DNA of 64,000 nt from a virus (IMGVR_UViG_3300050821_015552:1-64000); one strand, 5' to 3'; shown: positions 28,655 to 64,000, counted from the first letter of the stretch. Numbers and translations are program-made. Notes: generated from the letters alone by a model not told the origin.

Positions 28655-29101
28655 GTGAGCTGCGTCCAAGAGTCGGTACCTCTCGGGTGGCGCGTGTGGA
28701 GGCAAGCCGCCGTTCCCGATCCGCTCGCGCAGTTCGCCATCGACGTACGCGACCACGTCCGCAGCTACCCGTACGGCAGCATCGCGAAGACCATCGTCTA
28801 CAACGGGCAGACGGTCGGCGCGTTCGTGAGCCATCACTCATGGACCTACCGCAATGGCGTCCTCGTGACGGGCATCTGCATTCCGGGCGTGTCGCTGGTT
28901 ACGCAGGCCACGCAGGGCGTCGGCGCCACCGAGGCCGACAACCTCGACACGCCCGACCCCACGGCCGCCGTCTACTCGCTCGACGAGCCTCCGCCGGGCA
29001 TCAGCTGGCCGATCGTCGCCTTCACGGGCGCCGCCATGCTGCTGGTCGTCGGCGGCTTCTGGGCAGCCATCCAGCTCGCCGGCCGACCGCGCCTACCCTA
29101 G
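28655..29101 (+). CDS. Protein with C-terminal transmembrane helix
   Basis: SD GGAGG; WPIVAFTGAAMLLVVGGFWAAI. Confidence 0.7.
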   Translation: MSCVQESVPLGWRVWRQAAVPDPLAQFAIDVRDHVRSYPYGSIAKTIVYNGQTVGAFVSHHSWTYRNGVLVTGICIPGVSLVTQATQGVGATEADNLDTPDPTAAVYSLDEPPPGISWPIVAFTGAAMLLVVGGFWAAIQLAGRPRLP

Positions 29102-29574
29102 TGATGCAAGAGCCGCCAGAGCTCCGCGGCTCCCGCGGCCAGAGCCGCGATGACGGCCCATTCGAGCGCCTTGGCAGCCGCCTTGCGCGCCGCCCACGAG
29201 GGGAATGCCTTGATCTTGCGCCAGGTGCCCACCTCGGCCCGGAGACGCATTTCTTCGGTCACGCGCTCCACCGCGGTACGCAGGTCGTTGGGGCCGAACG
29301 GGCTGGAGGGGTCTGACGCGAGCGCCTTGAGCTGGGCGTACGTTTCGCGCAGATCGTGCGAGCCAGTGTCGTCGGTCCGGTGCGGAAAGCCGCCCTCGAT
29401 GAGCACTCGCCGCAGCTCGTCGTCGGCCTTGCGCAGGCCCGAGACCTCGGCGGCGAGCTTGCCGATGGACTGCATGATCGCGCCGATGTCGTTGGCGCGC
29501 TCGACGCGCACGGCGCGAAACTCGTTCTCGACGTCTTCGAACGACTCGAGATGCCCGCTTCCGCTGTTCATCAC
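29098..29574 (-). CDS. Coiled-coil protein with C-terminal TM helix (possibly holin-like)
   Basis: Helical N-terminus, hydrophobic C-terminus. Confidence 0.6.
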   Translation of the reverse strand: MMNSGSGHLESFEDVENEFRAVRVERANDIGAIMQSIGKLAAEVSGLRKADDELRRVLIEGGFPHRTDDTGSHDLRETYAQLKALASDPSSPFGPNDLRTAVERVTEEMRLRAEVGTWRKIKAFPSWAARKAAAKALEWAVIAALAAGAAELWRLLHH

Positions 29575-29813
29575 GACGCCAGGAGATTCTTCGAGGAGGC
29601 GTAGGAGGCGATGCCAGCTCCGGCCGCTGCACCGCCGACGCTGGTTGCAAGCACAATGTTGGCGCGCGTTTCAGCGCTGGCCATGCCGCGCGTCGCCAGC
29701 CGCCCTCCAACGAGACCCACGAGCAGACCCCCGACCGCTCCTGCCGCCGTCGTCCATGCGCTACCTGCTCGAGTCATGGGGATCATCTTGCCATGGGTTC
29801 GGCTGGGGACCAA
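29571..29813 (-). CDS. Small two-TM glycine-zipper membrane protein
   Basis: AAGAVGGLLVGLVGG; start may be later. Confidence 0.55.
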   Translation of the reverse strand: MVPSRTHGKMIPMTRAGSAWTTAAGAVGGLLVGLVGGRLATRGMASAETRANIVLATSVGGAAAGAGIASYASSKNLLAS

Positions 29814-29833
29814 AAGCGCGGTAGGCTCGGGTC

Positions 29834-30376
29834 GTGATCCGCTACTACCCGATCGCGGGAGCGCCGCGGAACATCTGCGCCGGCTACGGCAATCGCACGA
29901 CCAACGGCGTCACCAAGCTCCACGACGCCTGCGATCTCTGCGCTCCGACAGGGACGCCTGTCGTGGCGTGCGACGATGGCACCGTCTCGTACGGCGTCGA
30001 TCCGACGGGCGGCAACGTAGCGATTTTGCACATCGCTGACGGGACCGCTTACTTCCACGCCCACCTGCTCGACGTGCAGACTGGGCAGCGCAAGGTCTCC
30101 GCGGGTCAGCAGATCGCTCGGGTGGACACCACGGGCAATGCGGCGCTCGTCGGCATCCCACATTGCCACTGGCAGATCTGGCCGGGCGGCACTTTCCAGC
30201 CGGGCACCGTTCACCCCGATCCGACGGCGGCACTACTGGCCGCCGAGGTGCTCTCGGCTCCGCTCAGCGGCGGCATCGGCGTCGCGTCCAAGGCGCTGCT
30301 CTACGCCCTCGGCTTCGCGACAGCGGTAGGACTCACGTACGGGGCGCTGTATGCTTGGGATCGGCGACAAGCATGA
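29834..30376 (+). CDS. M23 family peptidase with C-terminal TM anchor
   Basis: HDACD (HxxxD), GTPVVA, YFHAHL, TGN...PHCHW (HxH). Confidence 0.85.
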   Translation: MIRYYPIAGAPRNICAGYGNRTTNGVTKLHDACDLCAPTGTPVVACDDGTVSYGVDPTGGNVAILHIADGTAYFHAHLLDVQTGQRKVSAGQQIARVDTTGNAALVGIPHCHWQIWPGGTFQPGTVHPDPTAALLAAEVLSAPLSGGIGVASKALLYALGFATAVGLTYGALYAWDRRQA

Positions 30377-31095
30377 AGACCCGCTTCATCATCTACTGCC
30401 ACACCTGTCGCGTGAACGGGAAGCAGTACATCGGTCAGACGCGACAGACGATGGAGAAGCGTTGGAGCGACCATGTGAAGCTGGCCAAGCGGAGCGTTCG
30501 TGTCGGCTGCCGGGCCCTTGCCTCCGCGATCATGAAGTACGGCGCCGACGCGTTCGACCACGAGATTCTCGATGTCGTGACCTCGCAAGAGGGCGCGAAC
30601 ATCGCAGAGCGGGTATGGATCGAGAAGCGCAGAACGACGTGTCCGAACGGGTACAACATCGCGCCCGTGGGGAACGCGGCGCCGCTGCATCCCGAAACGA
30701 TCCGTCGAGCGAGTGAGGCTCAGAAGAGGCGCTGGGCGAACGCGTCGGAAGAGCAGCGGGCGCCGATGCTGGAGAATCTCCGACGGGGACGCGAAGGCCT
30801 ATCGTTCGAGCAGTTGAGCGATCGCAGTCTGCGCGCACATGCAGCCCAGACGCCGGAGCAGCGCAGCCAGCGGCAGAAGAAGGCCTGGGCCTCGGTACCT
30901 GCCGCACGAAGACTCGAAATCGTTGCGCAGTTACTCAAGAACAAGGCCTCGGATCCGGAGATGTCTCGGAAAATCTCTGACGGCAAGAAGCGCGACTGGG
31001 CGCGCCTGACCCCAGAGCAGAAGGCGGAGCGTGTGCGGCGCATTGCCGAAGCATCTTGGAGCCCCGAAGCTCGACGCAAGCGGGGGCTCTCGTGA
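30373..31095 (+). CDS. GIY-YIG homing endonuclease
   Basis: IIYCHT...KQYIGQT...RW, E, PNGYN; TPEQ repeats. Confidence 0.88.
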   Translation: MKTRFIIYCHTCRVNGKQYIGQTRQTMEKRWSDHVKLAKRSVRVGCRALASAIMKYGADAFDHEILDVVTSQEGANIAERVWIEKRRTTCPNGYNIAPVGNAAPLHPETIRRASEAQKRRWANASEEQRAPMLENLRRGREGLSFEQLSDRSLRAHAAQTPEQRSQRQKKAWASVPAARRLEIVAQLLKNKASDPEMSRKISDGKKRDWARLTPEQKAERVRRIAEASWSPEARRKRGLS

Positions 31096-31793
31096 GCCTC
31101 GACTTCCCCGCCACCGCCAACGCTCTCTGGTCCGGCTTCACGGCCGGCAAGCTGCCACGCCCCGAGTACATCCTGCCGGTCTTCTTCTCGGAGAGCGGTT
31201 TCTCGACGAGCGTGACCAACAGCATAGGTTGCATCGGATTGAATCAGTTGTGCCCCTTCGCGTGGCCCATCCCCGCTGGCTACGCGTCGTGGTCCGCATC
31301 GCAACAGATCGCGGGGCCCATCACCTCGATGTTCGCGCAGCTCATCGCGCGCTACGGCCCCATCAACTCGGGCACGCGCGCTTACCTCGCCAACTTCCTG
31401 CCGGCCGATCTCGCGACGGCCAAGGATCTGTCGAGCGTGCTGGCGACCCGTGGTGGAGCCGTCTACTCGGCCAACTCGGGTCTCGACTACCAGAGCAAGG
31501 GGACCATCACCGTCGGCGACCTGGCGCACTTCATCGCGAAGGCTGCCGGCAACGCTGCGGTGAAGTCGGCCATCCAGCAGACCTACGCGCTCGCGCCCTC
31601 GGGCGTGGGGCCGCAGCAGGACCCCGTCTACGGTACCGACTTCTCGTCCTCGTCGCCGATCTCCTCCATCCCAGTAGCCGACATCGCCCTCGCCGCCGCC
31701 GCCGCCCTGTCGCTCGCGGGCTTAGGGTACCTGGCGTGGAAAGAGTACAAGCAGCCGGGCTACCTGCTGCCTTTCCGAGCGGCTACGGCCTAG
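31092..31793 (+). CDS. Lytic transglycosylase (SLT-like) with C-terminal TM anchor
   Basis: SESG, GLNQ, YLANFLPA, NSGLD...GTIT. Confidence 0.75.
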   Translation: MSLDFPATANALWSGFTAGKLPRPEYILPVFFSESGFSTSVTNSIGCIGLNQLCPFAWPIPAGYASWSASQQIAGPITSMFAQLIARYGPINSGTRAYLANFLPADLATAKDLSSVLATRGGAVYSANSGLDYQSKGTITVGDLAHFIAKAAGNAAVKSAIQQTYALAPSGVGPQQDPVYGTDFSSSSPISSIPVADIALAAAAALSLAGLGYLAWKEYKQPGYLLPFRAATA

Positions 31794-31845
31794 TTTTCGC
31801 GCGCTGCCCGTTCCGGGGTAAGCTCGCACGCGTGGAGGCTGCTTC

Positions 31846-32358
31846 ATGCCGGATGGCTCGGGTACAGGGGCTGCGCAGGACGCCACCCTGCAGGCCATCA
31901 TCGCAGCGCTCGGGGGACCGATAGTCGGCATGCCCAACGGTAGCGGCACTGGCCAAGCGCAGGACGCGTCGCTGCAGCAGATCCTGGCGCTGCTGGGCGG
32001 TGGAGGCTTGGTCCCGGGCAACTACAGCTCCATCGAGGTGCCCATTGGCCTGGTCACCGCGTCGTCCACGAACAAGATCCCCAAGAACGCCATCATCAAC
32101 GCCGTCTTCTTCGACAACTCGCGCGCCGGGGACGCCGCGTACTCGCCGGGCACGACGATTCAGGTCGGCATCGCGGGCAACGTCGCGCTCTTCATGAACG
32201 CAGGGCAGTCGATCCCAAACGTCCAGAGCCTCTACAGCTTCTTCGGCCTCGACATCAGCGTGGGTGCTGCGGCGGCGCCGCTGCTGGTGACCGTGGGTGG
32301 CTCTCCCGCAGTGGGCAGCGGAGTGGTCGTGGTTTATTTCTCGGTGCCTCTGACGTAG
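31846..32358 (+). CDS. Putative structural beta-rich protein with N-terminal repeat
   Basis: MP(D/N)GSGTG.AQDA.LQ occurs twice; promoter TTCGCG-17-TAAGCT and SD. Confidence 0.7.
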   Translation: MPDGSGTGAAQDATLQAIIAALGGPIVGMPNGSGTGQAQDASLQQILALLGGGGLVPGNYSSIEVPIGLVTASSTNKIPKNAIINAVFFDNSRAGDAAYSPGTTIQVGIAGNVALFMNAGQSIPNVQSLYSFFGLDISVGAAAAPLLVTVGGSPAVGSGVVVVYFSVPLT

Positions 32359-32370
32359 CAGGAGATCGAC

Positions 32371-32751
32371 ATGAGCGACGACTTCGCATGGTGGAGAGAT
32401 CGCGATTGGATCCTGCTGCTCATCCGGCAGCTCCAGCAGGGGCTGGCGATCATCATCAACAACGGCGGCGTACCGAAGACCGCCGCCGTCATCGGATCCG
32501 GAATCGCCTACACCGTCAAGCCCACCGACGCCGTGATCGCCTTCGACTCGTCGATCGGATCGCAGGCGCAGCCGGTCGCGACGCTCAACGCAGGCACGTA
32601 CATCGGCGAAGCGCACTCCTTCGTCTGGTACGGATGGGGAGGCAACCAGACGCCGCCGCTCATCCAGGGCGCGGCGGCGGGCGTGCTGATGATGCCGTAC
32701 GCGGGCATGCAGACCGAGGGGATCGGGGGCCTTTCGCGCCCTTGTCGATAG
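32371..32751 (+). CDS. Putative structural/fibre-associated protein
   Basis: SD AGGAG; stop codon lies inside the left 12-bp inverted repeat. Confidence 0.7.
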   Translation: MSDDFAWWRDRDWILLLIRQLQQGLAIIINNGGVPKTAAVIGSGIAYTVKPTDAVIAFDSSIGSQAQPVATLNAGTYIGEAHSFVWYGWGGNQTPPLIQGAAAGVLMMPYAGMQTEGIGGLSRPCR

Positions 32752-35241
32752 TGAACGGAGAACGAGAATGAAGACCATCCGCTACGTTGCCCTCGTACTC
32801 TTCGCGCTCGTGGCGTGCTCGCATTCGGGTACCCCGTCTCCGCCCCAGGCCGCAGTCGATGCTGCCGTCGCGCAGATGCCGACCCGTCTCGCTTTTGACG
32901 AGCCAGATGCGGGGATCGTTCGGCCGCAGGCTCAGCCGATCAAGCCGGTTGCGCCGAAGAAGGTAGACACGCGCACCGCGGCGCAAAGGCTCGCCGACGC
33001 CAAGCGTGATGCGATGTCTGCGTGCCGAGGCAGCGACGGCAAGTGGTACTGCGGAGACCTGAGCAACAAGAACGGGCAGGTCCCAGCGCCGCTCATGGCG
33101 TCCGGGAATGCGACTGCCGCTCAATGCGGCCCCGCTTGCACCGTTCCGACTTGGTACATCGACGTCAGCAACACGTCGGGATGTGCGTCAGATTCGAACT
33201 CCTGTACGAGTGCCGGATGCAGCGGTGCAGGCATCGGTCCATGCCTGTCGCTCAACCAAGTCGTCGCGCGCACCGGATCGTCCACGCCGATCTATCCACG
33301 CGGACAGAGCGTCACGATCAACTTTGTCTCCGCGCCCGCGGCCAACTACGGCCCGTACTACTTCGCTCCGCAGCTCTCTGGCGGTGGCACGCTGTCATTC
33401 GTAAGCGGCGTATCGACGTCCGAGTATTACGGCCTCGCGCAGGTCGACGGCGTCAACGTGGTCTCCGCGTTCGGCGTCGACAACACGGGCGCCACGGACG
33501 TCTGCGTCACGACCCTTCCCAATGCGTTCAATACGCTCGCCGCGAACGGTCAAGCCGCATGGATCCCGGGCGGGACCTACAAGTGCTCGACGCAGATCGA
33601 GCTTCCCAGTCTGACCATCAATCAGTCACCAGACGCGACGTTCATCGGCGGCCTCGATGGTCCGTCGACCATCATTCCCGGCACGCTCTTCTACGCTCCG
33701 TTGCCGGGGACCACGAGCACGACGACACTCAATGGGAATCCCACCGTCAGTCCGTACTCCAACACCATCGTCACGACCGTGGCGTTGACAGCGGGCACGT
33801 ACATCCAGATCGTGAGCGTGGCAGCCCCGACGCTCGCCGCGGTCTATCACGTCGAGTCGACCAGCACGTTCACGGCGACGCTCGATCACGCAATGCTCTA
33901 CCCGTTCGTGTCGGGTGACACGGTGAACACACTATCCGGACCTCCTGTGAGCGTCACATGGCGGGGAAACGGTGGCCAGATCACGGGCAAGGCGGTCGGG
34001 TTCATCGGTGGCGCGTTCTGGAACTCGAACATCAGCGGCCTGAAGTTTAGCGGGATCAACGGCACGCACGCCGACTACCTGACGCTCTTGTCTTACGGCT
34101 CGTACAACTCCACGATGCGCGACCTGTCAGCCGACGTGACAGGCGTACGCACCGGGTTCAACGCGGGCTTCGTCGATGCTGGGCAGAGCGATCTGCTCGA
34201 CAACGACTCGATCGTCGGTCCTACGTCCGTCACCGCGTCGGGGATCAAGATCGTCGATGCTCGCGCCGGCACGGCGCAGAATTGCCAGAGTCAAGGTCTG
34301 GAGTGGGGCCTCATCCTCGCGAGCGATGCCACGATCACTCCAGGCGTCGAGTGGTACCACGTTCACGGCGGCAACTTCCTGTACGGCTCGCAGTACGGCC
34401 TGTACGTCGGAGCGGGCAGCGCGAACAACGGATTCTCTGGCTCTATCGTGGCAACAGGGACGCAAGGTGGTGCTCGGCTTGATGGCACCGGCAGCGGCTC
34501 GATGGTGTCGAACACCTTCGAGCGTCTCGACGTCAGCGGGACGGCTGGCGATGGTCTGACGATCAGCGCGGGCACCAAGGGCACACGGATCGACACGCTC
34601 ATCACGGACAATCCGGCTGGTGTCTGCGTACAGGCGCACGATGAGCTATGGGTCGGCTACCACCACGCGTTCACGGCGGTGACGGCTTCATCGCCGAACA
34701 TCCTCAACATCGACACGTCGGGCATTGACGTCCACATCGGAGCACTCGACTGGAACTGCAGCTCCGCGAGCGGCGCCTTCACTAGCCAGGTCAACGCGGC
34801 TTCCCGCGCGACCTTCGGCAAAGGGCAGATCGTGCTGTCCACCAACAGCATCGGTCCTGCTGCGCAGCACTCCGGCTCGGTCGTCGTAGCGGACGAACTG
34901 CAAGTCGTACCGGCTGGCGGCGCTACGGGAACGATCGGCTTCTACGCACCGTCCGGCACACTGCGACTCGGTCTCGGTACGGATTCGAGCACGTGCGCGA
35001 CACCGATCGATGTGACGAGCGGCTTCTCGAACCGTGGACAGACGGCGGCGGGGACTGCTGGCGGCGCAGCCATCGCGTGGCCGGATCTCAAGTCGACAGA
35101 CGTCATCATCCTTACGCCTACGGCCGCGACGTTCACCGGCTGGATCAGCGCGACGTCGCCCGGGACGGGCTTCACGCTGAAGGACTCCGCGGGCGGGACG
35201 TACGGCTACTACATCCCCTGACGAATTAGCTATCGACAAGG
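32740..35241. repeat. 12-bp inverted repeats flanking the spike gene
   Basis: ccttgtcgatag (32740-32751) and ctatcgacaagg (35230-35241) are exact reverse complements. Confidence 0.7.
32768..35221 (+). CDS. Beta-helix (pectin-lyase-like) spike/depolymerase with lipoprotein signal peptide
   Basis: MKTIRYVALVLFALVAC lipobox; FGVDNTGATD...WIPGGTY cap motif; G/S/T-rich beta repeats. Confidence 0.75.
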   Translation: MKTIRYVALVLFALVACSHSGTPSPPQAAVDAAVAQMPTRLAFDEPDAGIVRPQAQPIKPVAPKKVDTRTAAQRLADAKRDAMSACRGSDGKWYCGDLSNKNGQVPAPLMASGNATAAQCGPACTVPTWYIDVSNTSGCASDSNSCTSAGCSGAGIGPCLSLNQVVARTGSSTPIYPRGQSVTINFVSAPAANYGPYYFAPQLSGGGTLSFVSGVSTSEYYGLAQVDGVNVVSAFGVDNTGATDVCVTTLPNAFNTLAANGQAAWIPGGTYKCSTQIELPSLTINQSPDATFIGGLDGPSTIIPGTLFYAPLPGTTSTTTLNGNPTVSPYSNTIVTTVALTAGTYIQIVSVAAPTLAAVYHVESTSTFTATLDHAMLYPFVSGDTVNTLSGPPVSVTWRGNGGQITGKAVGFIGGAFWNSNISGLKFSGINGTHADYLTLLSYGSYNSTMRDLSADVTGVRTGFNAGFVDAGQSDLLDNDSIVGPTSVTASGIKIVDARAGTAQNCQSQGLEWGLILASDATITPGVEWYHVHGGNFLYGSQYGLYVGAGSANNGFSGSIVATGTQGGARLDGTGSGSMVSNTFERLDVSGTAGDGLTISAGTKGTRIDTLITDNPAGVCVQAHDELWVGYHHAFTAVTASSPNILNIDTSGIDVHIGALDWNCSSASGAFTSQVNAASRATFGKGQIVLSTNSIGPAAQHSGSVVVADELQVVPAGGATGTIGFYAPSGTLRLGLGTDSSTCATPIDVTSGFSNRGQTAAGTAGGAAIAWPDLKSTDVIILTPTAATFTGWISATSPGTGFTLKDSAGGTYGYYIP

Positions 35242-35268: not shown

Positions 35269-36300
35269 GTGGCCAAGCCTACCGCTGCGCTCGCGCGGCT
35301 CGCGGAGCTCTCTGTCGAGGTCGACATCACCGAAGGGGTACGCAGGGCCGTATCCTACGCGCAGGACGTCATCTCGGAGCGAACCCGCAAGGGCTACGCG
35401 AACGAGTTCGCGCGCTTCGCAGCCTGGGCGGACGAGCAGAAGCTGCCCTCACTCCCGACCTCGCCCGAGATCGTGGCGGTCTACTTGGCCGCGCTGGCGG
35501 ACGGTAAGGTCCGCATGCGCTGGGTTGGGCGCGGATCCATAGAGCGCGAAACGCAGACCAAGAAGACGCCCGCGACGATCGAACGGGCCTTCATAGGGAT
35601 CATCCATGCGCAGCGCGAGGCGGGTCACGAGTGGCCGCGCGCTCATCCACTTCTGGCGCGAGTGATGCGCGGCATCCGGCGCAAGCTCGGGACCAAACAG
35701 AAGCGCGTTGCAGCTATCGGCCTGGCGGACCTGCGCGCACTGATCGAGCAGTGCCCCAAGACGCTCGCCGGGGCACGCGATCGGGCGATGCTATCGATCG
35801 GCTTCTTCGCGGCGTTGAGGCGCTCGGAACTGGTCGCGCTCGACGCGGCCGACATCAAGGCGACCCCCAAGGGACTCCTCGTGACCATCCGCAAGGCGAA
35901 GGAAGATCAGACGGCCAACGGTCGAACCGTTGCGCTCCCGCGAACGGAGGACGAGAGCATCTGCCCCGTGCGCCTCCTGCGGGCATGGCTCAAGGCGAGC
36001 AAGATCGAGTTGGGACCGCTATTCCGTCGCATCGACCGTGGAGGCAACCTGGGAAGCAGCGCGCTTTCGTCGCAGGTCGTAGGCATGATCATCAAGCAGC
36101 TCGCAGATGCTGCGGGCCTTGACGCCTCGAAGTTCTCGGGGCACTCGCTGCGCGCGGGCTTCGTCACCAGCGCCGCGCAGGCTGGCAAGTCATTCATGAG
36201 CATCATGAACCAGACTGGGCATCGAGACATTCGTACTGCGATGACGTACATCCGGCCCGCGACGGTCTGGGACGACAACGCCGCCGACGGTCTCGCCTGA
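35269..36300 (+). CDS. Tyrosine recombinase (Cre-like), paralog of 8733..9770
   Basis: ALRRSE, AKED, HSLRAG, QTGH, TYIR. Confidence 0.93.
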   Translation: MAKPTAALARLAELSVEVDITEGVRRAVSYAQDVISERTRKGYANEFARFAAWADEQKLPSLPTSPEIVAVYLAALADGKVRMRWVGRGSIERETQTKKTPATIERAFIGIIHAQREAGHEWPRAHPLLARVMRGIRRKLGTKQKRVAAIGLADLRALIEQCPKTLAGARDRAMLSIGFFAALRRSELVALDAADIKATPKGLLVTIRKAKEDQTANGRTVALPRTEDESICPVRLLRAWLKASKIELGPLFRRIDRGGNLGSSALSSQVVGMIIKQLADAAGLDASKFSGHSLRAGFVTSAAQAGKSFMSIMNQTGHRDIRTAMTYIRPATVWDDNAADGLA

Positions 36301-45864: not shown

Positions 45865-45866
45865 CG

Positions 45867-50452: not shown

Positions 50453-50461
50453 GAGCAGCAA

Positions 50462-50704: not shown

Positions 50705-50741
50705 ATTTGCACGTCGGGCCGTTCTGTAGGACTCTGGAGCC

Positions 50742-55399: not shown

Positions 55400-55999
55400 A
55401 TGGGCGCCTACGTCGTCGATCCGTACATCCAATGGCTGCTCATGAAGAGTCCCGCGCTGGCCTACGGCGTGGTGCTCTACGGACCGCTGGTCCCGTACCC
55501 GTTCACGATCACGGCCGCCTTCACGGCCGCCGGCAGCCCGTCGCCGATCCTGAACCAAGTGAGCGGCGACGATCCTCTCGACCGGGACATCCTCATCCCG
55601 GCCATCGACGTCGACATCCAGACCAAGGACTTCAACACGGCGAGCATCTTCAAGCCGGAAGCGGACCTGGCCTACGATGAGACGTCGGGCCTGCAGGTGA
55701 CGATCACCCAGCGCGGCGCCTTCGGCAAGCAGTACGACCAGATCCCGCTCAAGGCCGTTCCCAAGACGGTCTCGCGCCTCGATCCGATGTGTCTGCTCGA
55801 GGAGCAGAAGCTCCTGATGTCGTTCTTCGTCACGACGCCCCTGCCGAGCGACAGCACGGTGGTCACCGTGACGATGCTGGGCCTCACGTCCCAGAAGGAC
55901 GCCGTCTTCCGGATGGACACCAACGTCATTTTCGACAAGCTCGAGGCGCTCGGCTATTGGGTCGACCAGGCTCGGTGCTTCTGGCTGAGCGCGAACTAG
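55400..55999 (+). CDS. Beta-rich putative structural protein
   Basis: SD GGAG; alternating hydrophobic pattern. Confidence 0.7.
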   Translation: MGAYVVDPYIQWLLMKSPALAYGVVLYGPLVPYPFTITAAFTAAGSPSPILNQVSGDDPLDRDILIPAIDVDIQTKDFNTASIFKPEADLAYDETSGLQVTITQRGAFGKQYDQIPLKAVPKTVSRLDPMCLLEEQKLLMSFFVTTPLPSDSTVVTVTMLGLTSQKDAVFRMDTNVIFDKLEALGYWVDQARCFWLSAN

Positions 56000-56942: not shown

Positions 56943-57262
56943 GCTTCTCCACCGTCACCTGCGCCTACACGATCAACGCGTCCGGACAGATGACGCCCGC
57001 GCAGCTCGCGGCGTCCATGGCTGCGGCCGACATCCCCATCCCCGTGGAGTTCCTCGAGCTGACGGGCGCCACGGTCACCAGCGACACGACGGCCGCGGGC
57101 GCGACCTCGGCGGCGCGCACGGTCGTCTTCAACATCACCGCGGCGCAGTTCCAGTCGCAGTTCCCCGACGATCCGCTCGGGCCGTTCTGGGGGCTTCTGA
57201 CGCTGCCCATCGCGGAGTACGTCAACGCGCCCGTGCTCGAAGCCTTGCCGGTGGCGGCCTGA
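56939..57262 (+). CDS. Small putative structural protein
   Basis: ATGA coupling. Confidence 0.7.
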   Translation: MSFSTVTCAYTINASGQMTPAQLAASMAAADIPIPVEFLELTGATVTSDTTAAGATSAARTVVFNITAAQFQSQFPDDPLGPFWGLLTLPIAEYVNAPVLEALPVAA

Positions 57263-57264
57263 TC

Positions 57265-57849
57265 ATGGACAAGTCGACCAAGGTTGTAATCGGTATCGGT
57301 GGGGGCGTCGTGGCCGCCGTCGTCGTGGCTGCGATCTTCGAGCACTACGCGCACGCTTCGCCGTCACCCCCCGCCCCCGGCACGCTCCTCTGCCCGGACG
57401 GCACTCCCGCGCCCGGCGGCGTCATCACCAACTGCCCTCCGCCGGCCCCCGGCCAGAACCCCTACTCGCCGCCGGGCGGCTGGGTGTACTCGGGCAACCC
57501 CACGACCGACTACCTGCCGAGCGCTCACCTGCTCCTGCAGGTGGACCCCTGCGCCTGCTCGAGCGTGGGTCTGGTGCGTCGCTTCCAGGCCGCTGCGGGC
57601 CTGGTGCAGTCCGGGCAGTCCGACGGCCGCTACGGACCCGACGTCGCCGAAGCGTTGGCGAACGCGATCCAGGACATGGCGTCGCAGGGCTACAACGTCA
57701 GCGGCCTGTCCGCCCCGGTGGCGTGCGAGACGAGCAACGCGCCGCGCCCCTCCTGGTGGGGCCCCACGAACACGGCGTGGCCGGCGAGCGGCCCCAACCC
57801 CTACGAGAATCCCAACTGCCCCGGCGATCCAGGGCCGACGTACGCGTGA
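57265..57849 (+). CDS. Membrane-anchored peptidoglycan-binding protein
   Basis: N-terminal TM; VRRFQAAAGL...DGRYGPDVAEAL (PG_binding_1 pattern). Confidence 0.7.
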   Translation: MDKSTKVVIGIGGGVVAAVVVAAIFEHYAHASPSPPAPGTLLCPDGTPAPGGVITNCPPPAPGQNPYSPPGGWVYSGNPTTDYLPSAHLLLQVDPCACSSVGLVRRFQAAAGLVQSGQSDGRYGPDVAEALANAIQDMASQGYNVSGLSAPVACETSNAPRPSWWGPTNTAWPASGPNPYENPNCPGDPGPTYA

Positions 57850-57859
57850 GGAGACGACG

Positions 57860-58222
57860 ATGAACTGGACAGCACTCTCAGGTGGACTCGTCGGCGCCCT
57901 CGCAGGCGCCCTGGCTGGCGGTGGCATCGCCTACGCAGCGACCGACGAGGGCAAGCACGCGACGCCCACGCTGGTCGCTGGCGCGCTCGGTGGCGCGGTG
58001 GTGGGCCTCGGCGGAGCGATGCTCGGCAAGAAGGCCAAGTACAACCGTTGGAACGCGGCCAACCAGGCGTGCCCCGCGGGCCAGGTCGCCGACTACGGGA
58101 CGCTGCAGTGCGTGGCTGCGTGCCCGGACGACAGCATCCCCACCAACGGCGCGTGCACGGGCCTGGTCCCGAGTTCGAGCCTGTTCGGCGCGGGCGGGGC
58201 GCCCGAGCGGCTGGCGGGGTGA
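57860..58222 (+). CDS. Glycine-zipper membrane protein with Cys-rich tail
   Basis: Two TMs; four Cys; LFGAG near the C-terminus. Confidence 0.7.
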   Translation: MNWTALSGGLVGALAGALAGGGIAYAATDEGKHATPTLVAGALGGAVVGLGGAMLGKKAKYNRWNAANQACPAGQVADYGTLQCVAACPDDSIPTNGACTGLVPSSSLFGAGGAPERLAG

Positions 58223-58234
58223 TAGAAGGAAGCC

Positions 58235-58786
58235 ATGGAAACCGAAGACAAGAGCGAGCCGCAGGAGCAGCGGCAGGTCGGTGCTGGCGCAACGCTTCCG
58301 GGCACCGCCGAGGCGCAGGCGCTGGTGGCGGCCTACCCGGCCGGCGGCTGCACCAACCCGCTGACGGGCGGGGCGTTCTACGACACCGTCAAGGCCTTCA
58401 AGGTCGCCTACAACATCGGCATCAACCTGGGCGACACCTCGGGGCCCAACGGCGACGGTCCCTCGACGACGGCCGGCTACCTGCAGCACAACGGCGACTA
58501 CGACCAGGCGACGGCGGACGCAGTCACTGCGGCCCTGGGGTCGGCGCCGGCACCGTGCGCGGCGAGCGGCGGAGGGGGCGGCGGCAATGTGACGCCTCCG
58601 GCCAACAACAACGTGCCGGCGACCACGGGCGGAATGAGCGGGTGGGTGAAGGCGATCCTATGGGTGATCGCTCTCGCGGGTGCCGTCGGCCTGGGCCTCT
58701 GGCTCTGGAAGACGTTCGGCAGCTCGAGGCCGATGGCGGCGGAGAGCAAGAAGAAGCGCGGCAAGAGGACAGGTAGAAAGCGTTAA
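58235..58786 (+). CDS. Protein with PG-binding-like domain, C-terminal TM and basic tail
   Basis: VKAFKVAYN...GDYDQATADAV; QVGAG near the N-terminus. Confidence 0.7.
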   Translation: METEDKSEPQEQRQVGAGATLPGTAEAQALVAAYPAGGCTNPLTGGAFYDTVKAFKVAYNIGINLGDTSGPNGDGPSTTAGYLQHNGDYDQATADAVTAALGSAPAPCAASGGGGGGNVTPPANNNVPATTGGMSGWVKAILWVIALAGAVGLGLWLWKTFGSSRPMAAESKKKRGKRTGRKR

Positions 58787-58810: not shown

Positions 58811-60703
58811 GTGGACGACTACCAGAACGGGCTGCCACGTCAGCGCAGGGGCCCAGGCCCCCAGCAGCGCGCACAGCGTGTCCAGCAGCGCAAGGAGTTC
58901 GAAGCGTCGCGCCCAGGCCCGCCCACGCCGCACATCGCCCGCTTGACGGCGATGATCCATGAGCTCGAGGTCCCAGAGGACGTCAAGCTCGTGGCCGGCG
59001 CCCACGCCTTCAACCCCTCGGTGTGCGTCTTCAAGGGCGAGTTGCGGGTGGCGATCCGCCTCTGGGCTCGCGACGTGCCACACTACGCGATCGGTCGCAT
59101 CGACGAGCAATGGCGCCTGGTGGGGGCCCGAACGATGCACGGCGGGCAGTTCGAAGACCTGCGACTGTTCGATCTCGGTGGCAAGCTCGGCGCAACCGCC
59201 ACGGTGGTGGAGCCGCAGTCGACGCGGGTAGCCGTCTTGGAGCTCAACGACCACGGCGACGTCGTCTCGTCGCGCGCGCAGCCGTCGAGCCATGCCGAGA
59301 AGAACTGGATGCCGGCGGTGACCGGGGAGGACCACCTGCGGATCGTCTACAGGACGCAGCCGCCTGTCATCATGGACTACGCCGACGGAAAGGTGTGGCC
59401 CAGCCCACCGGACACGGCCGACTACCAACTCCACGGCGCGATGCGGGGCGGCAGTCAACTCCTGCCGTTCGAGGACGGATGGATCGCGGTCGTTCACGAG
59501 CGCCTGGAGGGCAGCCTCTACGCCCATCGCTTCGTGCGCTTCTCGCAGGATCTGTCGCGCGTGTCGGCCGGTCCCCAGTTTGTCTTCGAGCACGTCGGGA
59601 TCGAGTTCGCCTGCGGCCTGGCCCAGTGGCGTGGGCGATGGATCGTCTCGTTCGGCTCCGAGGACCGGCGCGCACGGATTGCCGTGCTGACGAGCGACGA
59701 GCTCGCAGCCTGGCTACCCGGTAAGCCGTCCACTGCCCTGGCGAAGGGTCGGCGCGTACTGGTCTGCCACAGCTCGCTCGAGCGGTGCGGCGTGCGCGAG
59801 TACGGCCGGCAGCTCGACGCGTCCCTCGTCAAGGCGGGAACCAACCTCTTGCCGTTCACCTACGGCAACGTCCAGGCGATACCCCAGGTCTGCTCAGCCG
59901 GCGACACCCTGCTCGTCCACTACGAGCCGCAACTGTTGCCGCCCGATTTCCTCCATACGCTGGGCGAAATCAAGAAGCGCGGTACCCGCATCGTTCTGTG
60001 CTGCCACTGGTACTCGGAAGGCGCCTTGCGCGATCTGCGTCCCCTGGTGGACGAGGTTGTGGTGCACCGCAGCTACCCCGACGCGGGCCGCGCGACCGTG
60101 ATCCCGCTGGGCTGCCCCGTATACGAGCCGGGAGACCGGGAGGCACTCCGCAGGCGCCTGGGCCTGTCAGGTGTGGTCGTCACGACGATAGGTCTCTTGG
60201 CAGGGTGGAAGCGCATCCCCGAGACGGTGGCGGCCATCGCGCGTCAGGCGCCTGCAGGAGTGACGATCGTAGTGCAGACGCCCCCACCGTCACCGAACTC
60301 GGGCGAAGAGGACCGCTTGCGGTCGGCCATCGCTCCGTTCGGTGACAAGGCCCGCCTGTCCACGCGCTTCCTGCCCGAGACCGATCTACTGGATCTGGTG
60401 CACGCCTCGGACGTGGGCTTCGTGTTTCACGGCGTCCACACCCAGAGCGTTTCGGCCGCGACCAAACAGTTCGTCTCGGCGAGAACGCCGCTGGTCACCA
60501 CCAGCTCCACGCACTCCTCCGATCTGAACGGCGTCCACCGCGTCGACTCGTTCGATCCAGATGTCTTCGCCCGCGAGGTACTCCGGGTGGCCGCAGACGC
60601 GCCACTGTGCGAACGAATGCGAGGGGAAATGGCCGCCGAGTACACGCGACTGAACATGGACGCGGTTGCGGCCCACTACATGGGGGTGCTGTGGTGCAAG
60701 TGA
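58811..60703 (+). CDS. Fusion of a glycosidase/phosphorylase-like beta-propeller and a GT-B glycosyltransferase
   Basis: FNPS, EDLRLF, EKNWMP, RGGSQ, GIEFACGL; C-terminal CGVREYG, IPLG, GWKRIPE. Confidence 0.75.
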   Translation: MDDYQNGLPRQRRGPGPQQRAQRVQQRKEFEASRPGPPTPHIARLTAMIHELEVPEDVKLVAGAHAFNPSVCVFKGELRVAIRLWARDVPHYAIGRIDEQWRLVGARTMHGGQFEDLRLFDLGGKLGATATVVEPQSTRVAVLELNDHGDVVSSRAQPSSHAEKNWMPAVTGEDHLRIVYRTQPPVIMDYADGKVWPSPPDTADYQLHGAMRGGSQLLPFEDGWIAVVHERLEGSLYAHRFVRFSQDLSRVSAGPQFVFEHVGIEFACGLAQWRGRWIVSFGSEDRRARIAVLTSDELAAWLPGKPSTALAKGRRVLVCHSSLERCGVREYGRQLDASLVKAGTNLLPFTYGNVQAIPQVCSAGDTLLVHYEPQLLPPDFLHTLGEIKKRGTRIVLCCHWYSEGALRDLRPLVDEVVVHRSYPDAGRATVIPLGCPVYEPGDREALRRRLGLSGVVVTTIGLLAGWKRIPETVAAIARQAPAGVTIVVQTPPPSPNSGEEDRLRSAIAPFGDKARLSTRFLPETDLLDLVHASDVGFVFHGVHTQSVSAATKQFVSARTPLVTTSSTHSSDLNGVHRVDSFDPDVFAREVLRVAADAPLCERMRGEMAAEYTRLNMDAVAAHYMGVLWCK

Positions 60704-61512
60704 CCATCGGCATTCCGACCCTCAACGGCCCCGACAGGCTCTTTCGCTGCCTGCGTTCGATCGGTCAGCACACCTCGTGGGGCTCATGCGGCGACGTCAA
60801 GGTGCTCGTCGTCGATGACGGCTCGACTGAAGAGCTGCTCAAGACGAACAAGGACATGGTGCACATCGCCAGCGGCCTGTACCCGCAGATGGGCCTCGAG
60901 ATGCTCATGCACAACGAGCGGCGCGGCATCGCAAGAGGGTGGAACGCGCTCACGCGTCACCGCGGCAGCGAGGTCGTGGCGCTCATGAACGACGACATCG
61001 AAGTGGTCGACGACTGGCTCGATGTGCTCGTCTATTCCGTCACGAAGAACGGGCATGCCGGCATGGTGGGGCTCAACTCGTACGTCGGCGTGACCAAGGC
61101 CTCCGTGCCGTTCCCGCCACCGCGCGTCGACTACTGCGAGGGCAGGCTCCTGGGCGGCGGCAGCAACGGCCTGGTGTCGTCACAGGGCCCGCTCTTCGCG
61201 TTCCGGCGCGAAATGTTCGATCGCGTCGGCGGGTTCGACGAGCGCTACTTCTGCTTCTACGAGGAGGTCGACTTCGGGATCGCGCTCAGGCAGGCCGGCT
61301 TCCACCACTACATGGCCGACTACCCGCGCGTGTTCCACATGGGCGGAGCGACCAACTCGAAGCCCGAAAACCTGGACGCGGCCAAGCACATGGCCGAGAG
61401 CGCGGAGAAGTTCCGGCAGAAGTGGGGTGCGACGCTCGGCGATCTGCGGGCGGGATTTGGACCGTCGCCCGGGTGCGACGAGTGGAACACGCAGATCAAG
61501 AACTGGAGATGA
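60691..61512 (+). CDS. GT2 glycosyltransferase
   Basis: IGIPTLN, VVDDGS, MNDD, GGFDERY, EEVD. Confidence 0.88.
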   Translation: MVQVTIGIPTLNGPDRLFRCLRSIGQHTSWGSCGDVKVLVVDDGSTEELLKTNKDMVHIASGLYPQMGLEMLMHNERRGIARGWNALTRHRGSEVVALMNDDIEVVDDWLDVLVYSVTKNGHAGMVGLNSYVGVTKASVPFPPPRVDYCEGRLLGGGSNGLVSSQGPLFAFRREMFDRVGGFDERYFCFYEEVDFGIALRQAGFHHYMADYPRVFHMGGATNSKPENLDAAKHMAESAEKFRQKWGATLGDLRAGFGPSPGCDEWNTQIKNWR

Positions 61513-62231
61513 CGTCTGTGGAGTTTTCGATCTGCATCCCGACCTATCGGGGCGCCGCGCGCCTGGCGCGATTGTTCGAATCGCTGCCCAGAAATCTTGA
61601 CGCCGAGGTGCTCGTCTGGGACGACGGCTCGCCGCCACAAGACGCAAGCGCGATCGAGCGGGTCGTCCCGGCAAACGCTCAGGTACGCCACTCGCTCCGT
61701 AACCGAGGTGCCGTCGCTGCGCTCGAGGAGATGGCGAGCCTAGCGGCTGGCCGGTTCATCCTGCAGCTTGATGACGACGTGCGCTTGCCGCCCGGGTTCT
61801 TCGAGGCGGCCAGGCAACTGCTGGCACTGCCGAACATCGGCGTCCTGTCGTGGCGCAGCTGCGGCATCGACGAGGACCGGCCAGGCGTCGCCGGTTTGCT
61901 CGAGCCGGCGACGGAGCTGGCTGGCTACTGCATGGCCTATCCGACCGAGCTGCGCGACGCGATCGGCGGCATCGACACCCGCTACAAGATGTACTGCTCC
62001 GACAGCGACTTCACACTGCGGGCCATGATGTCGGGGCGGCCATGTTACCGCGTGGGCTGGCCGCTCGTACCGCACGAGGAGCACGGCGTCTACAAAGACC
62101 CCGACAACGAGGGCCTTCGCCGAACGCGTGACGAGGTAGCCCCGCTCGACATGAAGGCGTTTGTCGACAAGTGGGGTGCGGACGGTCAAGAGATGCAGCG
62201 GCGCGCCATCGCGCGTCTGATGGGGGCCTGA
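61509..62231 (+). CDS. GT2 glycosyltransferase
   Basis: SICIPTY, WDDGS, LDDD, GGID. Confidence 0.85.
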   Translation: MTSVEFSICIPTYRGAARLARLFESLPRNLDAEVLVWDDGSPPQDASAIERVVPANAQVRHSLRNRGAVAALEEMASLAAGRFILQLDDDVRLPPGFFEAARQLLALPNIGVLSWRSCGIDEDRPGVAGLLEPATELAGYCMAYPTELRDAIGGIDTRYKMYCSDSDFTLRAMMSGRPCYRVGWPLVPHEEHGVYKDPDNEGLRRTRDEVAPLDMKAFVDKWGADGQEMQRRAIARLMGA

Positions 62232-62232
62232 C

Positions 62233-63162
62233 ATGCCGCGGATCGTGATTGGTGTGCCGACGTACAACGGGGCCGAGCGCCTCGGCTGGCTGCTCAAGTC
62301 GATGGCGATGCGAACGCCCATGCTGGCGACCGGCGACGTGCGGATCGTCGTGGTCGACGACGGCTCGCCGATGGTCGGCGCAACCGTTTCGGCCTACCGC
62401 ATGTGGGAGGCGCAGCTACCCATCGATCTCGTCCAGCACGGCGGCAACCGTGGCATCTCGGCCGGGTGGAACACAGCGGCGCGGCACCACGACTGCGAGT
62501 ACGTGGTGCCCATCAACGACGACGTCATCGTGCCGAGCGGCGGATGGCTCGAGTCGCTCATTCACACGCTCGAGCATTCGCCGGGCGTCGGCGTGGTCGG
62601 CGCCAGCTGGCATGCGTTTACGCCCGAGGACGCGCCGGCCCTGCTCGCGGGGCCCGAGTCGGACAGGGACGTCATTCCGCGTGAGCCTCGCAACGAGCAC
62701 GGCCTGGTGCGCCAGAACGCGGCTCGCCGAACCCAGTACGAGGACGTGTGGCCTGGACGCGTCATGTGTCCGACCGGAGAGCTGTTCGCGTTCCGCAGGA
62801 AAGACTTCGACCGCATCGGCGGCTTCGATGAGAACTACAAGTCGTTCTACGAGGAGAGCGACTTCGGCACGAGCATGGCCGCTGCCGGCCTGATAGGCGT
62901 GCAGCTCACGTGGCCGTTTTGCTACCACCTGTGGAGCGCCACATTCGGGGCGAGCCCAGAGCTGCGCGCGGATGAGCGGATGACGGCGTCGCGCGCGTAC
63001 TACCGACGCAAGTGGGCCGTGCCCGACGGCGTCGCCGAGTTCGACTTCACCAACCCGAAGTTCTTCGGCGCCATCGGCGATGTGCCCGTCGAGTTTCTAC
63101 GCAAGTCGGGGCCGTGCAAGGGTGTGCTCCGGCAAGACGGCGCATTCGTCGAGGGGGTTTGA
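62233..63162 (+). CDS. GT2 glycosyltransferase
   Basis: IGVPTYN, VVDDGS, INDD, GGFDENY. Confidence 0.88.
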   Translation: MPRIVIGVPTYNGAERLGWLLKSMAMRTPMLATGDVRIVVVDDGSPMVGATVSAYRMWEAQLPIDLVQHGGNRGISAGWNTAARHHDCEYVVPINDDVIVPSGGWLESLIHTLEHSPGVGVVGASWHAFTPEDAPALLAGPESDRDVIPREPRNEHGLVRQNAARRTQYEDVWPGRVMCPTGELFAFRRKDFDRIGGFDENYKSFYEESDFGTSMAAAGLIGVQLTWPFCYHLWSATFGASPELRADERMTASRAYYRRKWAVPDGVAEFDFTNPKFFGAIGDVPVEFLRKSGPCKGVLRQDGAFVEGV

Positions 63163-63164
63163 CC

Positions 63165-63809
63165 ATGGACCATCCGTTTCACGCAGAGGCGCAGAAGTTC
63201 TTCCCGGACTTCGACTACAAGCGCCCGGCCGGAGATCGCAACGTCCTCTGCGACATGCGCAACCCAGGCAACATGGTGGGCCATCAGCAGCGGGCGTTCT
63301 CATGCTTCTGGGCCCTTCGCACATGCGGGCCTACCGATCTCGGGCTCGACCTGGGCAGCCCACGGGGTCTGACGCCCTACTGCGTCCACGTCGACATCTT
63401 CGGCGACGGGCGCGTGCACCCGTTCTACGGAGGCGGGGAGTACCGATCGGACGTCGTCTGGGACGCCGCCGACGTGTCGAAGGTCTTCCCAGACAAGACC
63501 TTTCCGTTCGTCGGCTCCAATCACTCGCTCGAGCACATGGCGGCGCCTGGAGATGGCGGGATCGTCGAGGTGCTCTGCGGATGGCTGCGGCTGCTGCGGC
63601 CCGGAGGGATCTTGGCGATGATCGTGCCGGACAACGCGCACTTCGACGTCATGGCCTCCGACAAGGACCACCGTCACGCCTGGAGTCACGACGACTTTCG
63701 GCCGCGGGTGCTCGACCATGTGCTCGCGCGCGGCGGCGTGGACCTGATCGAGTACGACACGCTCGACAACCACTTCAGCTTCGACGTCGTGCTGCGGAAG
63801 ACGTCGTGA
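63165..63809 (+). CDS. SAM-dependent methyltransferase (type 11-like)
   Basis: GLDLGS, SNHSLEH, RLLRPGG, IVPD. Confidence 0.85.
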   Translation: MDHPFHAEAQKFFPDFDYKRPAGDRNVLCDMRNPGNMVGHQQRAFSCFWALRTCGPTDLGLDLGSPRGLTPYCVHVDIFGDGRVHPFYGGGEYRSDVVWDAADVSKVFPDKTFPFVGSNHSLEHMAAPGDGGIVEVLCGWLRLLRPGGILAMIVPDNAHFDVMASDKDHRHAWSHDDFRPRVLDHVLARGGVDLIEYDTLDNHFSFDVVLRKTS

Positions 63810-64000
63810 GGGTCCTTTTCATCGATCACGTCGAGCCGGACTTCCTGGCCGCCGTGACCTACATGGGCCTCTGCCAGGAGCTCGGCGCTGAAAACGTCGT
63901 CGACTGGCCGTGGAAGCACTCCTATCACGGGCAGACCTACAAGGGTCCGATCCCCTACCCGCCACCCATGGATCGGGGATCGACGGCGCCATTTCCGTGG
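63806..64000 (+). CDS. Partial ORF, probably a further glycan-related enzyme
   Basis: GTGA coupling; MRVLFIDH...; runs off the window. Confidence 0.5.
   Translation, partial: MRVLFIDHVEPDFLAAVTYMGLCQELGAENVVDWPWKHSYHGQTYKGPIPYPPPMDRGSTAPFPW

Follow-up and report, generated by a model that had tools for sequence, protein, structure and literature searches.

A closed soil genome of about 79.7 kb with a jelly-roll coat-like protein and no detected packaging motor: a candidate family of large tailless bacterial viruses

The coat-like gene, its partners and the surrounding block

The window analysed here is a stretch of 64,000 nucleotides (IMGVR_UViG_3300050821_015552:1-64000) that corresponds to bases 7623–71622 of C104, a contig of 79,854 bp within a 5.35-Mb, 104-contig soil metagenome bin, and our subject is its block of late-type genes, which includes the gene for a 455-aa jelly-roll coat-like protein (53960..55327). 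The last 141 bases of C104 are identical to the first 141, which indicates that the assembler closed the contig into a ring and that C104 is a complete genome of about 79.7 kb, circular or circularly permuted. Both flanks outside the window (L001 and L002; 15.7 kb) were included in the analysis. Given the GC content of 67%, genes were called with a codon-usage model trained on the long open reading frames (ORFs) of the contig. This yielded about 126 genes, nearly all on the + strand, arranged as a phage-type early and replication module in the left half, a morphogenesis-type module at 28.6–58.8 kb and a glycan-synthesis island in the remainder. All genes of the block described below lie on the + strand and are given in window coordinates.

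The coat-like gene has the highest coding score on the ring in the codon model and belongs to a conserved, co-occurring trio, whose other members encode a 199-aa protein that always adjoins it (55400..55999; 29 homologs) and a 311-aa protein (56007..56942; 27 homologs on the same contigs). Its product has 26 relatives with 53–87% identity, on contigs of up to 94 kb, and an exhaustive profile search widened the family to 79 representatives clustered at 50% identity, mostly 415–490 aa in length. Profile searches of the coat, 199-aa and 311-aa families against Protein Data Bank (PDB) sequences gave no match, hhalign comparisons between the three families gave none, and 67 coat-family members matched nothing in PHROGs.

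An AlphaFold2 model of the coat-like protein built with a 67-sequence alignment reached a predicted local distance difference test score (pLDDT) of 83.5 and a predicted template-modelling score (pTM) of 0.79, and replaced a model from a shallow alignment with a pLDDT of 61. Residues 1–45 are disordered and are followed by a beta-rich body. Foldseek returned no significant match. Its ranking consisted mostly of jelly-roll capsids, including papillomavirus L1 (E 3e-3) and FLiP, with capsids of RNA, CRESS and papilloma viruses as the BFVD rows; among the top 1000 chains, looked at a second time, were SPV1, PR772/PRD1, PBCV-1, Faustovirus, STIV, FLiP, iridovirus, L1 and picornavirus VP1. When the model was compared with 48,161 chains by VIA-align, the top row was the HCIV-1 coat protein (Z 5.0, root-mean-square deviation [rmsd] 3.7 Å, 131 aa). 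The SPV1 coat protein (6oj0) gave Z 4.7–4.9 and rmsd 4.0–4.1 Å over 139–142 of 178 residues, a score too low to tell relatives from common folds, and VP16 and VP17 of P23-77 gave Z 3.9 and 3.8. PRD1 P3 aligned with Z 3.6–3.8 and rmsd 6–7.4 Å, within a group of PRD1 P3, PBCV-1, STIV and Faustovirus rows at Z 3.5–4.2 and rmsd 4.8–9 Å. The language-model neighbours were all viral capsid clusters at 0.84–0.86, which is lead level, and one of them was polyomavirus VP1.

Small capsid jelly rolls align over residues 62–432, which points to one jelly roll with about 230 insertion residues and not to a tandem double jelly roll. With its jelly-roll core, and judged by its context, the 455-aa protein is probably the major capsid protein. 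The first-pass annotation, made from the window's sequence, had described 53960..55327 as beta-rich and counted a jelly-roll fold there as support for its reading; the model has such a core, with weak matches and no fold row pointing to HK97. The 199-aa protein is a candidate second capsid or vertex protein; a complex prediction with residues 45–455 of the coat-like protein scored 0.00, which is evidence neither way.

Directly upstream of the coat-like gene lies the gene for a 474-aa protein (52452..53876) in which about 200 Lys/Arg-rich N-terminal residues (net charge +93) are followed by hydrophobic segments in the hydropathy scan, as expected from the membrane-anchored basic protein proposed in the first-pass annotation. 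By its composition it is a candidate membrane-anchored DNA-condensing protein. Further upstream, a transglutaminase-fold Cys-His-Asp enzyme with a C-terminal transmembrane (TM) anchor (47722..48957; Pfam Transglut_core, E 6e-4) has residues C114, H146 and D162 that are invariant in the homologs of three elements, C104 and the two relatives described below, and is a probable maturation protease as judged from sequence. We searched the record of the cultured tailless phage SSIP-1 (JN880423) with the family profiles. The transglutaminase-fold profile matched gp34, a protein annotated there as structural, at E 2.5e-16 in hmmsearch, and single sequences did so at E of about 1e-9; hhalign aligned the protease and gp34 over 146 columns with 97.3% probability (E 1.9e-11), with Cys, His and Asp aligned. 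Homology with this virion protein is the first tie of the family to a real particle and the sole demonstrable link by descent. In a phmmer search of all proteins against SSIP-1 (E < 0.3), the only other match was one of 16 bits between 49649-50452 and ORF39.

The module is also enriched in a short motif, hydrophobic-G-A-G. It occurs 18 times in the 6,216 residues encoded at 38.7–58.8 kb, against 3.4 expected (about five-fold; maximum 11 in 1000 composition-preserving shuffles), and four times in the other 18,083 residues; its density in long ORFs of the host is one tenth of that in the module. Eight module proteins carry it within their first 60 residues, and the protease carries it just past its own catalytic domain. 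In the 67-member alignment of the coat family, R-x-(L/I/F/V)-G-x-G is the only strongly conserved N-terminal feature (G47 in 63 of 64 sequences, G49 in 65 of 65), located directly after a variable segment of 0–86 residues and at the edge of the disordered part of the model. Related leaders, for example ...L-G-A-G... and ...V-L-G-A..., are found on proteins of both relatives. Proteases of adenovirus, poxvirus and African swine fever virus cut at Gly-containing sites, and by analogy the simplest reading is that the transglutaminase-fold enzyme would remove leaders at hydrophobic-G-x-G during maturation. A separate observation is that the C-terminus of a GT2-like protein (42800-42898) and the stretch after the protease domain (48330-48420) contain the near-identical peptide F-V-G-A-G-x-A-x-D-x-L-P-M-H-G-Y-A, for which duplication of a cassette is one possible cause and a common signal for processing or docking another.

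Hallmark genes were sought with Pfam in nearly all C104 ORFs of at least 150 aa and with PHROGs in the 20 largest or most conserved proteins. On C104 these scans found no family of the terminase, portal, HK97 capsid, tape-measure, baseplate or tail kind, and six-frame scans of the bin and of the bins of the two relatives (G000, G076 and G453) gave no match to TerL_ATPase, Terminase_6N, Phage_capsid or Pox_A32; named control genomes, used as positive controls, matched in the same scans. FtsK_SpoIIIE matches in the three bins were confined to chromosomal contigs. Across the six frames of C104, just two genuine genes contain a Walker A motif, those for the PrimPol-VapE primase-helicase and for the DEAD helicase, and no FtsK/HerA or A32 ATPase was found anywhere on the ring. 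Since the ring is closed, the lack of a packaging ATPase extends from the window to the genome as a whole. The check covered all three elements: no P-loop packaging ATPase was found in the closed relative (G453:C433) either, and all-against-all comparison of the three detected no shared terminase, portal or large ATPase-like protein. In tailed phages, terminase, portal and HK97-type genes are normally the best conserved. Among the scanned C104 proteins, Pfam detected no relaxase and no type IV secretion system (T4SS) or type IV coupling protein (T4CP) family, and there is no further P-loop on the ring. Thus the statements of the first-pass annotation that its 35-kb late block has no recognisable terminase, portal, HK97 capsid, tape-measure or tail protein, and that no packaging ATPase is visible in the window, both hold, the latter now for the entire ring. 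The flanks, where it had left room for an FtsK/HerA ATPase or for terminase and portal genes, hold sugar-modification genes, an Rv2525c-like glycoside-hydrolase-like protein just upstream of the window and small ORFs, and no terminase, portal, capsid or tail gene.

The remaining genes of the block are dominated by membrane proteins, with a TM or signal segment predicted in 21 of about 38 genes (55%) at 28.6–58.8 kb by a crude hydropathy scan, in keeping with the roughly 20 TM proteins counted earlier. The first gene encodes a 148-aa protein with two predicted TM segments (28655..29101; codon-model call and hydropathy, no Pfam family). An M23 peptidase, or peptidoglycan endopeptidase, with C-terminal hydrophobic segments (29834..30376; PF01551, E 7e-15) has a homolog in the unclosed relative (G076:C20) and is probably a lysis or entry enzyme. 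It is followed by a GIY-YIG homing-endonuclease-like gene (30373..31095; PF01541, E 1.6e-8) and by three small genes without a Pfam family (31092..32751; 233, 170 and 126 aa), of which two encode proteins tail-anchored by a C-terminal TM segment and the 170-aa one has a homolog in G076:C20. An 817-aa predicted lipoprotein (32768..35221; lipobox L-V-A-C) has a right-handed Beta_helix match below the cut-off (E 0.017) and is a candidate spike or depolymerase. Its gene is flanked by a perfect 12-nt inverted repeat (I6; 32740-32751 / 35230-35241), directly upstream of a tyrosine recombinase gene (35269..36300; Phage_integrase, E 8.6e-16; phrog_1, E 7e-24); the repeat could act as an inversion switch, with about 0.2 such pairs expected by chance in 2.8 kb.

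Next come a 531-aa protein with a C-terminal RadC-like JAB domain that is common to both relatives (36422..38017; PF04002, E 8e-10) and a soluble 516-aa protein of low complexity (38691..40241), rich in Pro and charged residues, with three G-A-G sites and no Pfam, PHROG or phage match. The latter may be a scaffold or internal protein; the genes at the same position in the two relatives are related to each other. A second GIY-YIG endonuclease-like gene (40757..41743; PF01541, E 1.8e-8), the 383-aa GT2-like protein (41747..42898; weak GT2 match, E 0.004) and an Endonuclease VII/HNH-type endonuclease (43896..44522; PF02945, E 7e-12) precede four membrane proteins of 192, 242, 88 and 517 aa (44519..47683), which belong to no family; the 192- and 517-aa ones have an N-terminal leader ending in hydrophobic-G-A-G. 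The two GIY-YIG genes and the Endonuclease VII/HNH-type gene are scattered through the structural module. After the protease come six small Gly/Ala-rich membrane proteins (48936..51555; 238, 267, 80, 112, 60 and 87 aa), several with hydrophobic-G-A-G sites, and a conserved soluble 148-aa core protein (51552..51998), which, like the 199-aa and 311-aa proteins, is also present in both relatives. Downstream of the trio are four small proteins (56939..58786; 107, 194, 120 and 183 aa), three of them membrane-anchored and the 183-aa one with a homolog in G453:C433.

The glycan-synthesis island, about 14 kb in all, starts at 58811..64000 with a 630-aa protein, three GT2 genes and a methyltransferase, and continues past the window with methyltransferases, a B12 radical-SAM enzyme, an epimerase and gmd. 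The gmd gene, glycosyltransferases and sugar methyltransferases are also found in G453, and the radical-SAM enzyme is also found in G076. This B12-binding enzyme (L002:2579-4117, - strand) is kept in G076:C20 at 12203-14824, where it is duplicated or fused, and represents unusual chemistry for a virus-encoded sugar pathway. Genes for PrimPol-VapE, a PD-(D/E)XK nuclease, a DEAD helicase and Dam lie in the left half of C104, as does PolA, a family A DNA polymerase split into two ORFs (20343-21419 and 22015-22845). Pfam matches the first of these to positions 38-135 of DNA_pol_A and the second to positions 141-380, and a basic ORF, also of 199 aa, fills the gap exactly (21416-22015; no Pfam match at E <= 1); with this insert, C104 has four homing-endonuclease-like genes. 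A 531-aa protein at 3943-5538 belongs to phrog_1735, of unknown function (E 1.4e-106), and has homologs with 36–46% identity in 535 tailed-phage genomes, whose hosts are as diverse as Salmonella, Klebsiella, Bacillus, Caulobacter, Pseudomonas and Rhizobium; the gene is widespread in phages, yet here it sits in a genome without tailed-phage morphogenesis genes. Three tyrosine recombinases (293-1555, - strand; 8733-9770, + strand; and the one at 35269-36300) and a tRNA-Arg(ACG) (3812-3888) complete the list.

Most of the gene assignments made earlier were thus recovered, among them the lipoprotein, the glycosylation cluster and the PolA/helicase/primase module. One of two TM-anchored wall hydrolases, the M23 peptidase, was confirmed, and the other (31092-31793) was not reproduced because it matches no Pfam family. 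Two peptidoglycan-binding proteins did not survive: all that was found is a sub-threshold PG_binding_1 trace (E 0.31) in 57265-57849.

Relatives, conserved gene order and occurrence

A hidden Markov model scan for the coat gene in 400 genomes of the phylum and 400 of the bacterial family identified two further carriers, both in the same bacterial family: G076:C20 (54.6 kb, not closed) and G453:C433 (73,663 bp), a closed ring with the same 141-bp closure. Comparison of the three elements by BLASTP and phmmer revealed a constant structural core. In G076:C20 the order is protease, 148-aa protein, basic-TM protein, coat, 199-aa and 311-aa proteins, as in C104, so that the basic protein gene is again directly upstream of the coat-like gene in a collinear architecture. 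G453:C433 keeps the protease, 148-aa, coat, 199-aa and 311-aa genes in order and has an unmatched 414-aa gene in place of the basic protein gene; the second core member ranges from 148 to 195 aa. The M23 peptidase, RadC-like domain, gmd, radical-SAM enzyme and integrase are each common to at least two of the three elements. In a metagenome locus (L005), a 496-aa ORF takes the place of the basic protein gene and is followed first by the coat gene and then by a 200-aa ORF, and the trio genes are consecutive in one named GenBank record (KGI71_04775 to 04785). Across metagenomes, the family is found on contigs of 55–94 kb.

Replication modules vary. G076:C20 has its own set, and G453:C433 has only a weak Rep (ORF2/G2P-like) match at 23805-25334 (L015:3805-5334; E 4e-4) with no helicase and no PolA/primase/helicase set, which shows that replication modules differ within the family. 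Virus families usually look like this, with replication modules exchanged around structural genes that stay the same. In addition, five proteins of G453:C433 (126–555 aa; 1908-2528, 53506-54084, 58833-59213, 59525-61192 and 61195-62853, within L014-L017) start with the same motif of about 25 residues, …D-A-L-K-…-Q-L-Q-L-x-S-P-x-G-x-W…, and in this respect resemble interchangeable spikes with one anchoring domain.

The coat gene was present in 3 of about 490 genomes of the same bacterial family and in 0 of 307 from other families of the phylum, numbers too few to prove host range. The C104 bin encodes RecA. A 20-kb DNA search of 400 family genomes gave short GC-rich chance matches only, and the best of them (34 nt, G096) lies in a Pro/Gly-coding repeat and not in a CRISPR array. 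The unpublished genomes G588, G573 and G427 underlie none of our statements. Among 50,697 phage records, neither the coat, 199-aa, protease and 516-aa proteins nor 24 kb of DNA found a match (tblastn or megablast), and the coat protein had none in 72,556 plasmid records (tblastn). A pattern scan of GTDB representative genomes gave no family match, and a metagenome scan for the family yielded two short loci only. RNA contigs from three soil metatranscriptome studies cover parts of 52.4–56.7 kb (the basic, coat, 199-aa and 311-aa genes) with 0–2 differences; the runs were found using this very stretch and the contigs cannot rank genes, so that they hint only weakly at transcription of the structural genes in soil.

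Interpretation and competing explanations

Taken together, the results lead us to favour, with moderate confidence, the view that C104 represents in full the genome, about 79.7 kb long, of a bacterial virus from soil that has not been cultivated and that belongs to an undescribed, widespread family with a tailless, jelly-roll particle built without a packaging motor. From gene content we infer a lipid membrane, the shell geometry, a tailless icosahedral particle and the host, and likewise cleavage and DNA condensation. As there is no motor, condensation of the genome probably falls to the +93 protein, and a possible assembly route can be outlined as follows. This membrane-anchored protein (52452-53876) would condense DNA at a virus-modified membrane populated by the roughly twenty small, often Gly/Ala-rich membrane proteins; the 455-aa jelly-roll protein and its 199-aa and 311-aa partners would close the outer shell; and the membrane-anchored transglutaminase-fold enzyme would trim N-terminal leaders at hydrophobic-G-x-G sites. 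The 817-aa lipoprotein would probably act as the spike that binds the receptor, entry or lysis would probably be served by the M23 peptidase together with the glycoside-hydrolase-like protein, and the glycan island would probably decorate virion proteins. The full proposition, a deep unrecognised lineage of 55–95-kb double-stranded DNA (dsDNA) bacterial viruses that dispense with a motor and rely on membrane protamine-like condensation, a novel single-jelly-roll shell and G-x-G protease maturation, with the SSIP-1 gp34-type protease as sole cultured link, is offered tentatively, as something we would sooner doubt than assume.

Several observations weigh against a tailless virus with a jelly-roll shell. 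All fold matches of the coat-like protein are weak (Z <=5, where unrelated models are typically at 7–8), and lectin, C1q and discoidin jelly rolls score nearly as high as capsids; because of this closeness, the label 'capsid protein' derives from context. The fold evidence comes from one protein, and the family scans took in proteins longer than about 150 aa. Neither a particle nor lipid nor a host has been observed, and the assignment of C104 to a bacterial genome comes from binning alone: C104 has no att-like or spacer-like identity with the rest of the bin, the sole match being gmd at 70%. The coat, 199-aa and 311-aa profiles match no SSIP-1 protein, and the SSIP-1 virion module has the Walker-A P-loop proteins gp40 and gp41, for which C104 has no counterpart.

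Some findings would suit a very divergent tailed phage (Caudoviricetes), in which hallmark genes have drifted past the reach of Pfam and PHROGs and the jelly-roll protein serves as a decoration, as a fibre or in receptor binding. The replication genes are of the kind found in tailed phages (PolA, the helicase, Dam and phrog_1735, with its 535 tailed-phage genomes), homing endonucleases occur several times, tail-fibre jelly rolls are among the fold rows (for example 9rkv, Z 4.4), and 49649-50452 has a weak tape-measure-like match (E 0.004). A further point counts both for such a phage and against our preferred view: the Atlas model of the 199-aa protein resembles three clusters of uncharacterised virus proteins of about 170 aa labelled Uroviricota (TM-score 0.57–0.71). 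However, no protein of at least 400 aa is left over for TerL, all being otherwise assigned, TM-bearing or of low complexity, and Walker A is confined to two replication proteins. TerL, Terminase_6N and Phage_capsid are absent from six frames of three genomes in scans in which the controls matched, nothing like TerL, a portal or HK97 is among the genes conserved across the three distant elements, and 55% of the module genes encode membrane proteins. We regard a tailed phage as very unlikely.

The family is absent from IMG/VR in a pattern scan and from cultured phages, which counts against a virus and would suit a non-viral plasmid or integrative element with a cell-envelope system, in which proteins are sorted or cleaved at G-x-G, a surface-layer-like jelly-roll protein is glycosylated and a glycan island is present. 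A closed ring with three tyrosine recombinases, a large glycan-synthesis cluster, many membrane or leader-bearing proteins and jelly-roll lectin and BclA-like folds that score near capsids are all compatible with this. We nevertheless consider it quite unlikely: no partition, relaxase, T4SS or secretion ATPase and no extra P-loop were found, the 72,556 plasmid records hold no match, and the element has four homing-endonuclease-type genes, a PolA/primase/helicase set and the phage-wide phrog_1735 protein. One of the proteins identified in SSIP-1 virions is a homolog of its protease, the gene for the +93 protein adjoins the jelly-roll gene in two distant elements, and the swapping of replication modules around a constant structural core follows the virus-family pattern. 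An enveloped or pleomorphic virus (plasmavirus-like, pleolipovirus-like or of a new shape), with the jelly-roll protein as spike, matrix or nucleocapsid and the basic protein tethering the genome to the envelope, would account for the missing packaging ATPase, as expected for budding or wrapping, for the very abundant membrane proteins and for the membrane anchor of the basic protein, and the fold evidence leaves the capsid role unfixed. Set against this, the coat-like protein is soluble, is the best conserved of the family and, at about 450 aa, resembles typical major capsid proteins; the structures and language-model clusters nearest to it are those of capsid proteins that form shells, and peptidoglycan hydrolases point to lytic entry or exit through the wall. 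Among cultured viruses only SSIP-1 shares a virion protein with the element, and its particle is icosahedral with a membrane inside (PMC6260650). We rate an enveloped particle as unlikely.

If our preferred view of a tailless, motor-free virus is true, a widespread soil family of 55–95 kb would roughly double the size ceiling of non-tailed membrane phages, of which SSIP-1, at 44 kb, is the largest cultured; in the literature on membrane-containing and jelly-roll phages we found no non-tailed phage described above that size. Non-tailed membrane-containing phages are thought to be small. Large dsDNA genomes would then be packaged in bacteria without a terminase or FtsK-type motor, which bears on the links among capsid size, genome size and packaging mechanism, and if motor-free packaging of 55–95-kb genomes is real, the family would be a new lineage. 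To our knowledge, a motor-free condensed-DNA strategy is otherwise found only in small archaeal (SPV1) or eukaryotic (papilloma/polyoma) viruses. Because the family is invisible to marker-based virus detection, with none in IMG/VR, soil viromes may systematically miss it. Several of its components lend themselves to direct tests: the conserved coat-like protein, which has no close relative in structure, the protease and its candidate cleavage code, the protamine-like protein anchored in a membrane and the glycan pathway that the virus encodes. It would also provide the first relatives for the orphan phage SSIP-1.

Comparison with known systems

SSIP-1 is a cultured icosahedral tailless phage with a 44-kb genome, a T=49 particle of about 100 nm that encloses a membrane, and coat proteins of two types (PMC6260650, PMC6356626, PMC4958249), and its gp40 is a predicted packaging ATPase (PMC4124505). 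Besides the gp34-type protease, C104 resembles it in having circular dsDNA, a genome large for a non-tailed phage and a long run of small structural and membrane genes. In contrast, the C104 genome is 1.8 times larger, comes from soil and not from hypersaline water, and has a PolA-type replication module and a 14-kb glycan island.

Viruses with vertical single jelly rolls, of the sphaerolipovirus type (HCIV-1, HHIV-2, SH1 and Thermus P23-77/IN93), are likewise tailless with an internal membrane and have adjacent large and small coat genes. They differ in their conserved A32/FtsK-type ATPase, whereas none was detected in C104, and in their 17–31-kb genomes, and there is no sequence-level relation. 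Like PRD1 and PM2 (Tectiviridae and Corticoviridae), C104 has numerous small membrane proteins, enzymes that degrade the wall and a building block with a jelly roll, but it has no evident double jelly roll and no packaging ATPase, and its genome is 5–8 times larger. The first-pass annotation had proposed a new lineage of large tailless membrane virus, with PRD1 and PM2 as its comparison. Its virus-like genome and a module free of tailed-phage hallmarks stand; the PRD1/PM2 analogy fails because C104 has no FtsK/HerA-type packaging ATPase, and the contrast with membrane phages known only at about 10–15 kb was overstated because it overlooks the 44-kb SSIP-1 (PMC6260650).

Closer parallels in function are found among viruses that form jelly-roll shells without a motor. 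In SPV1, the DNA is presumably condensed by a basic protein and membrane-wrapped inside a jelly-roll shell, with no packaging ATPase. C104 shares with the Portogloboviridae (SPV1; PDB 6OJ0) the lack of a packaging ATPase, and the SPV1 coat protein is among its best structural neighbours, although the match is weak. SPV1 has an archaeal host and a 20-kb genome, whereas C104 has 79.7 kb and bacterial or phage-type genes (M23 peptidase, PolA, lipobox); no sequence similarity was detected, the coat match is restricted to the core of a C104 protein that is 2.5 times longer and has large insertions, and the basic protein of C104 is membrane-anchored. Papilloma and polyoma capsids assemble around protein-condensed DNA without a motor. 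Here L1 supplied the best-ranked Foldseek rows and a VP1 cluster was among the language-model neighbours; three-dimensional superposition gave Z <=3.0, and these viruses are eukaryotic, membrane-less and of 5–8 kb, so that the analogy is one of mechanism only. As analogies, SPV1 and the papilloma/polyoma type are better functional models for C104 than PRD1 and PM2.

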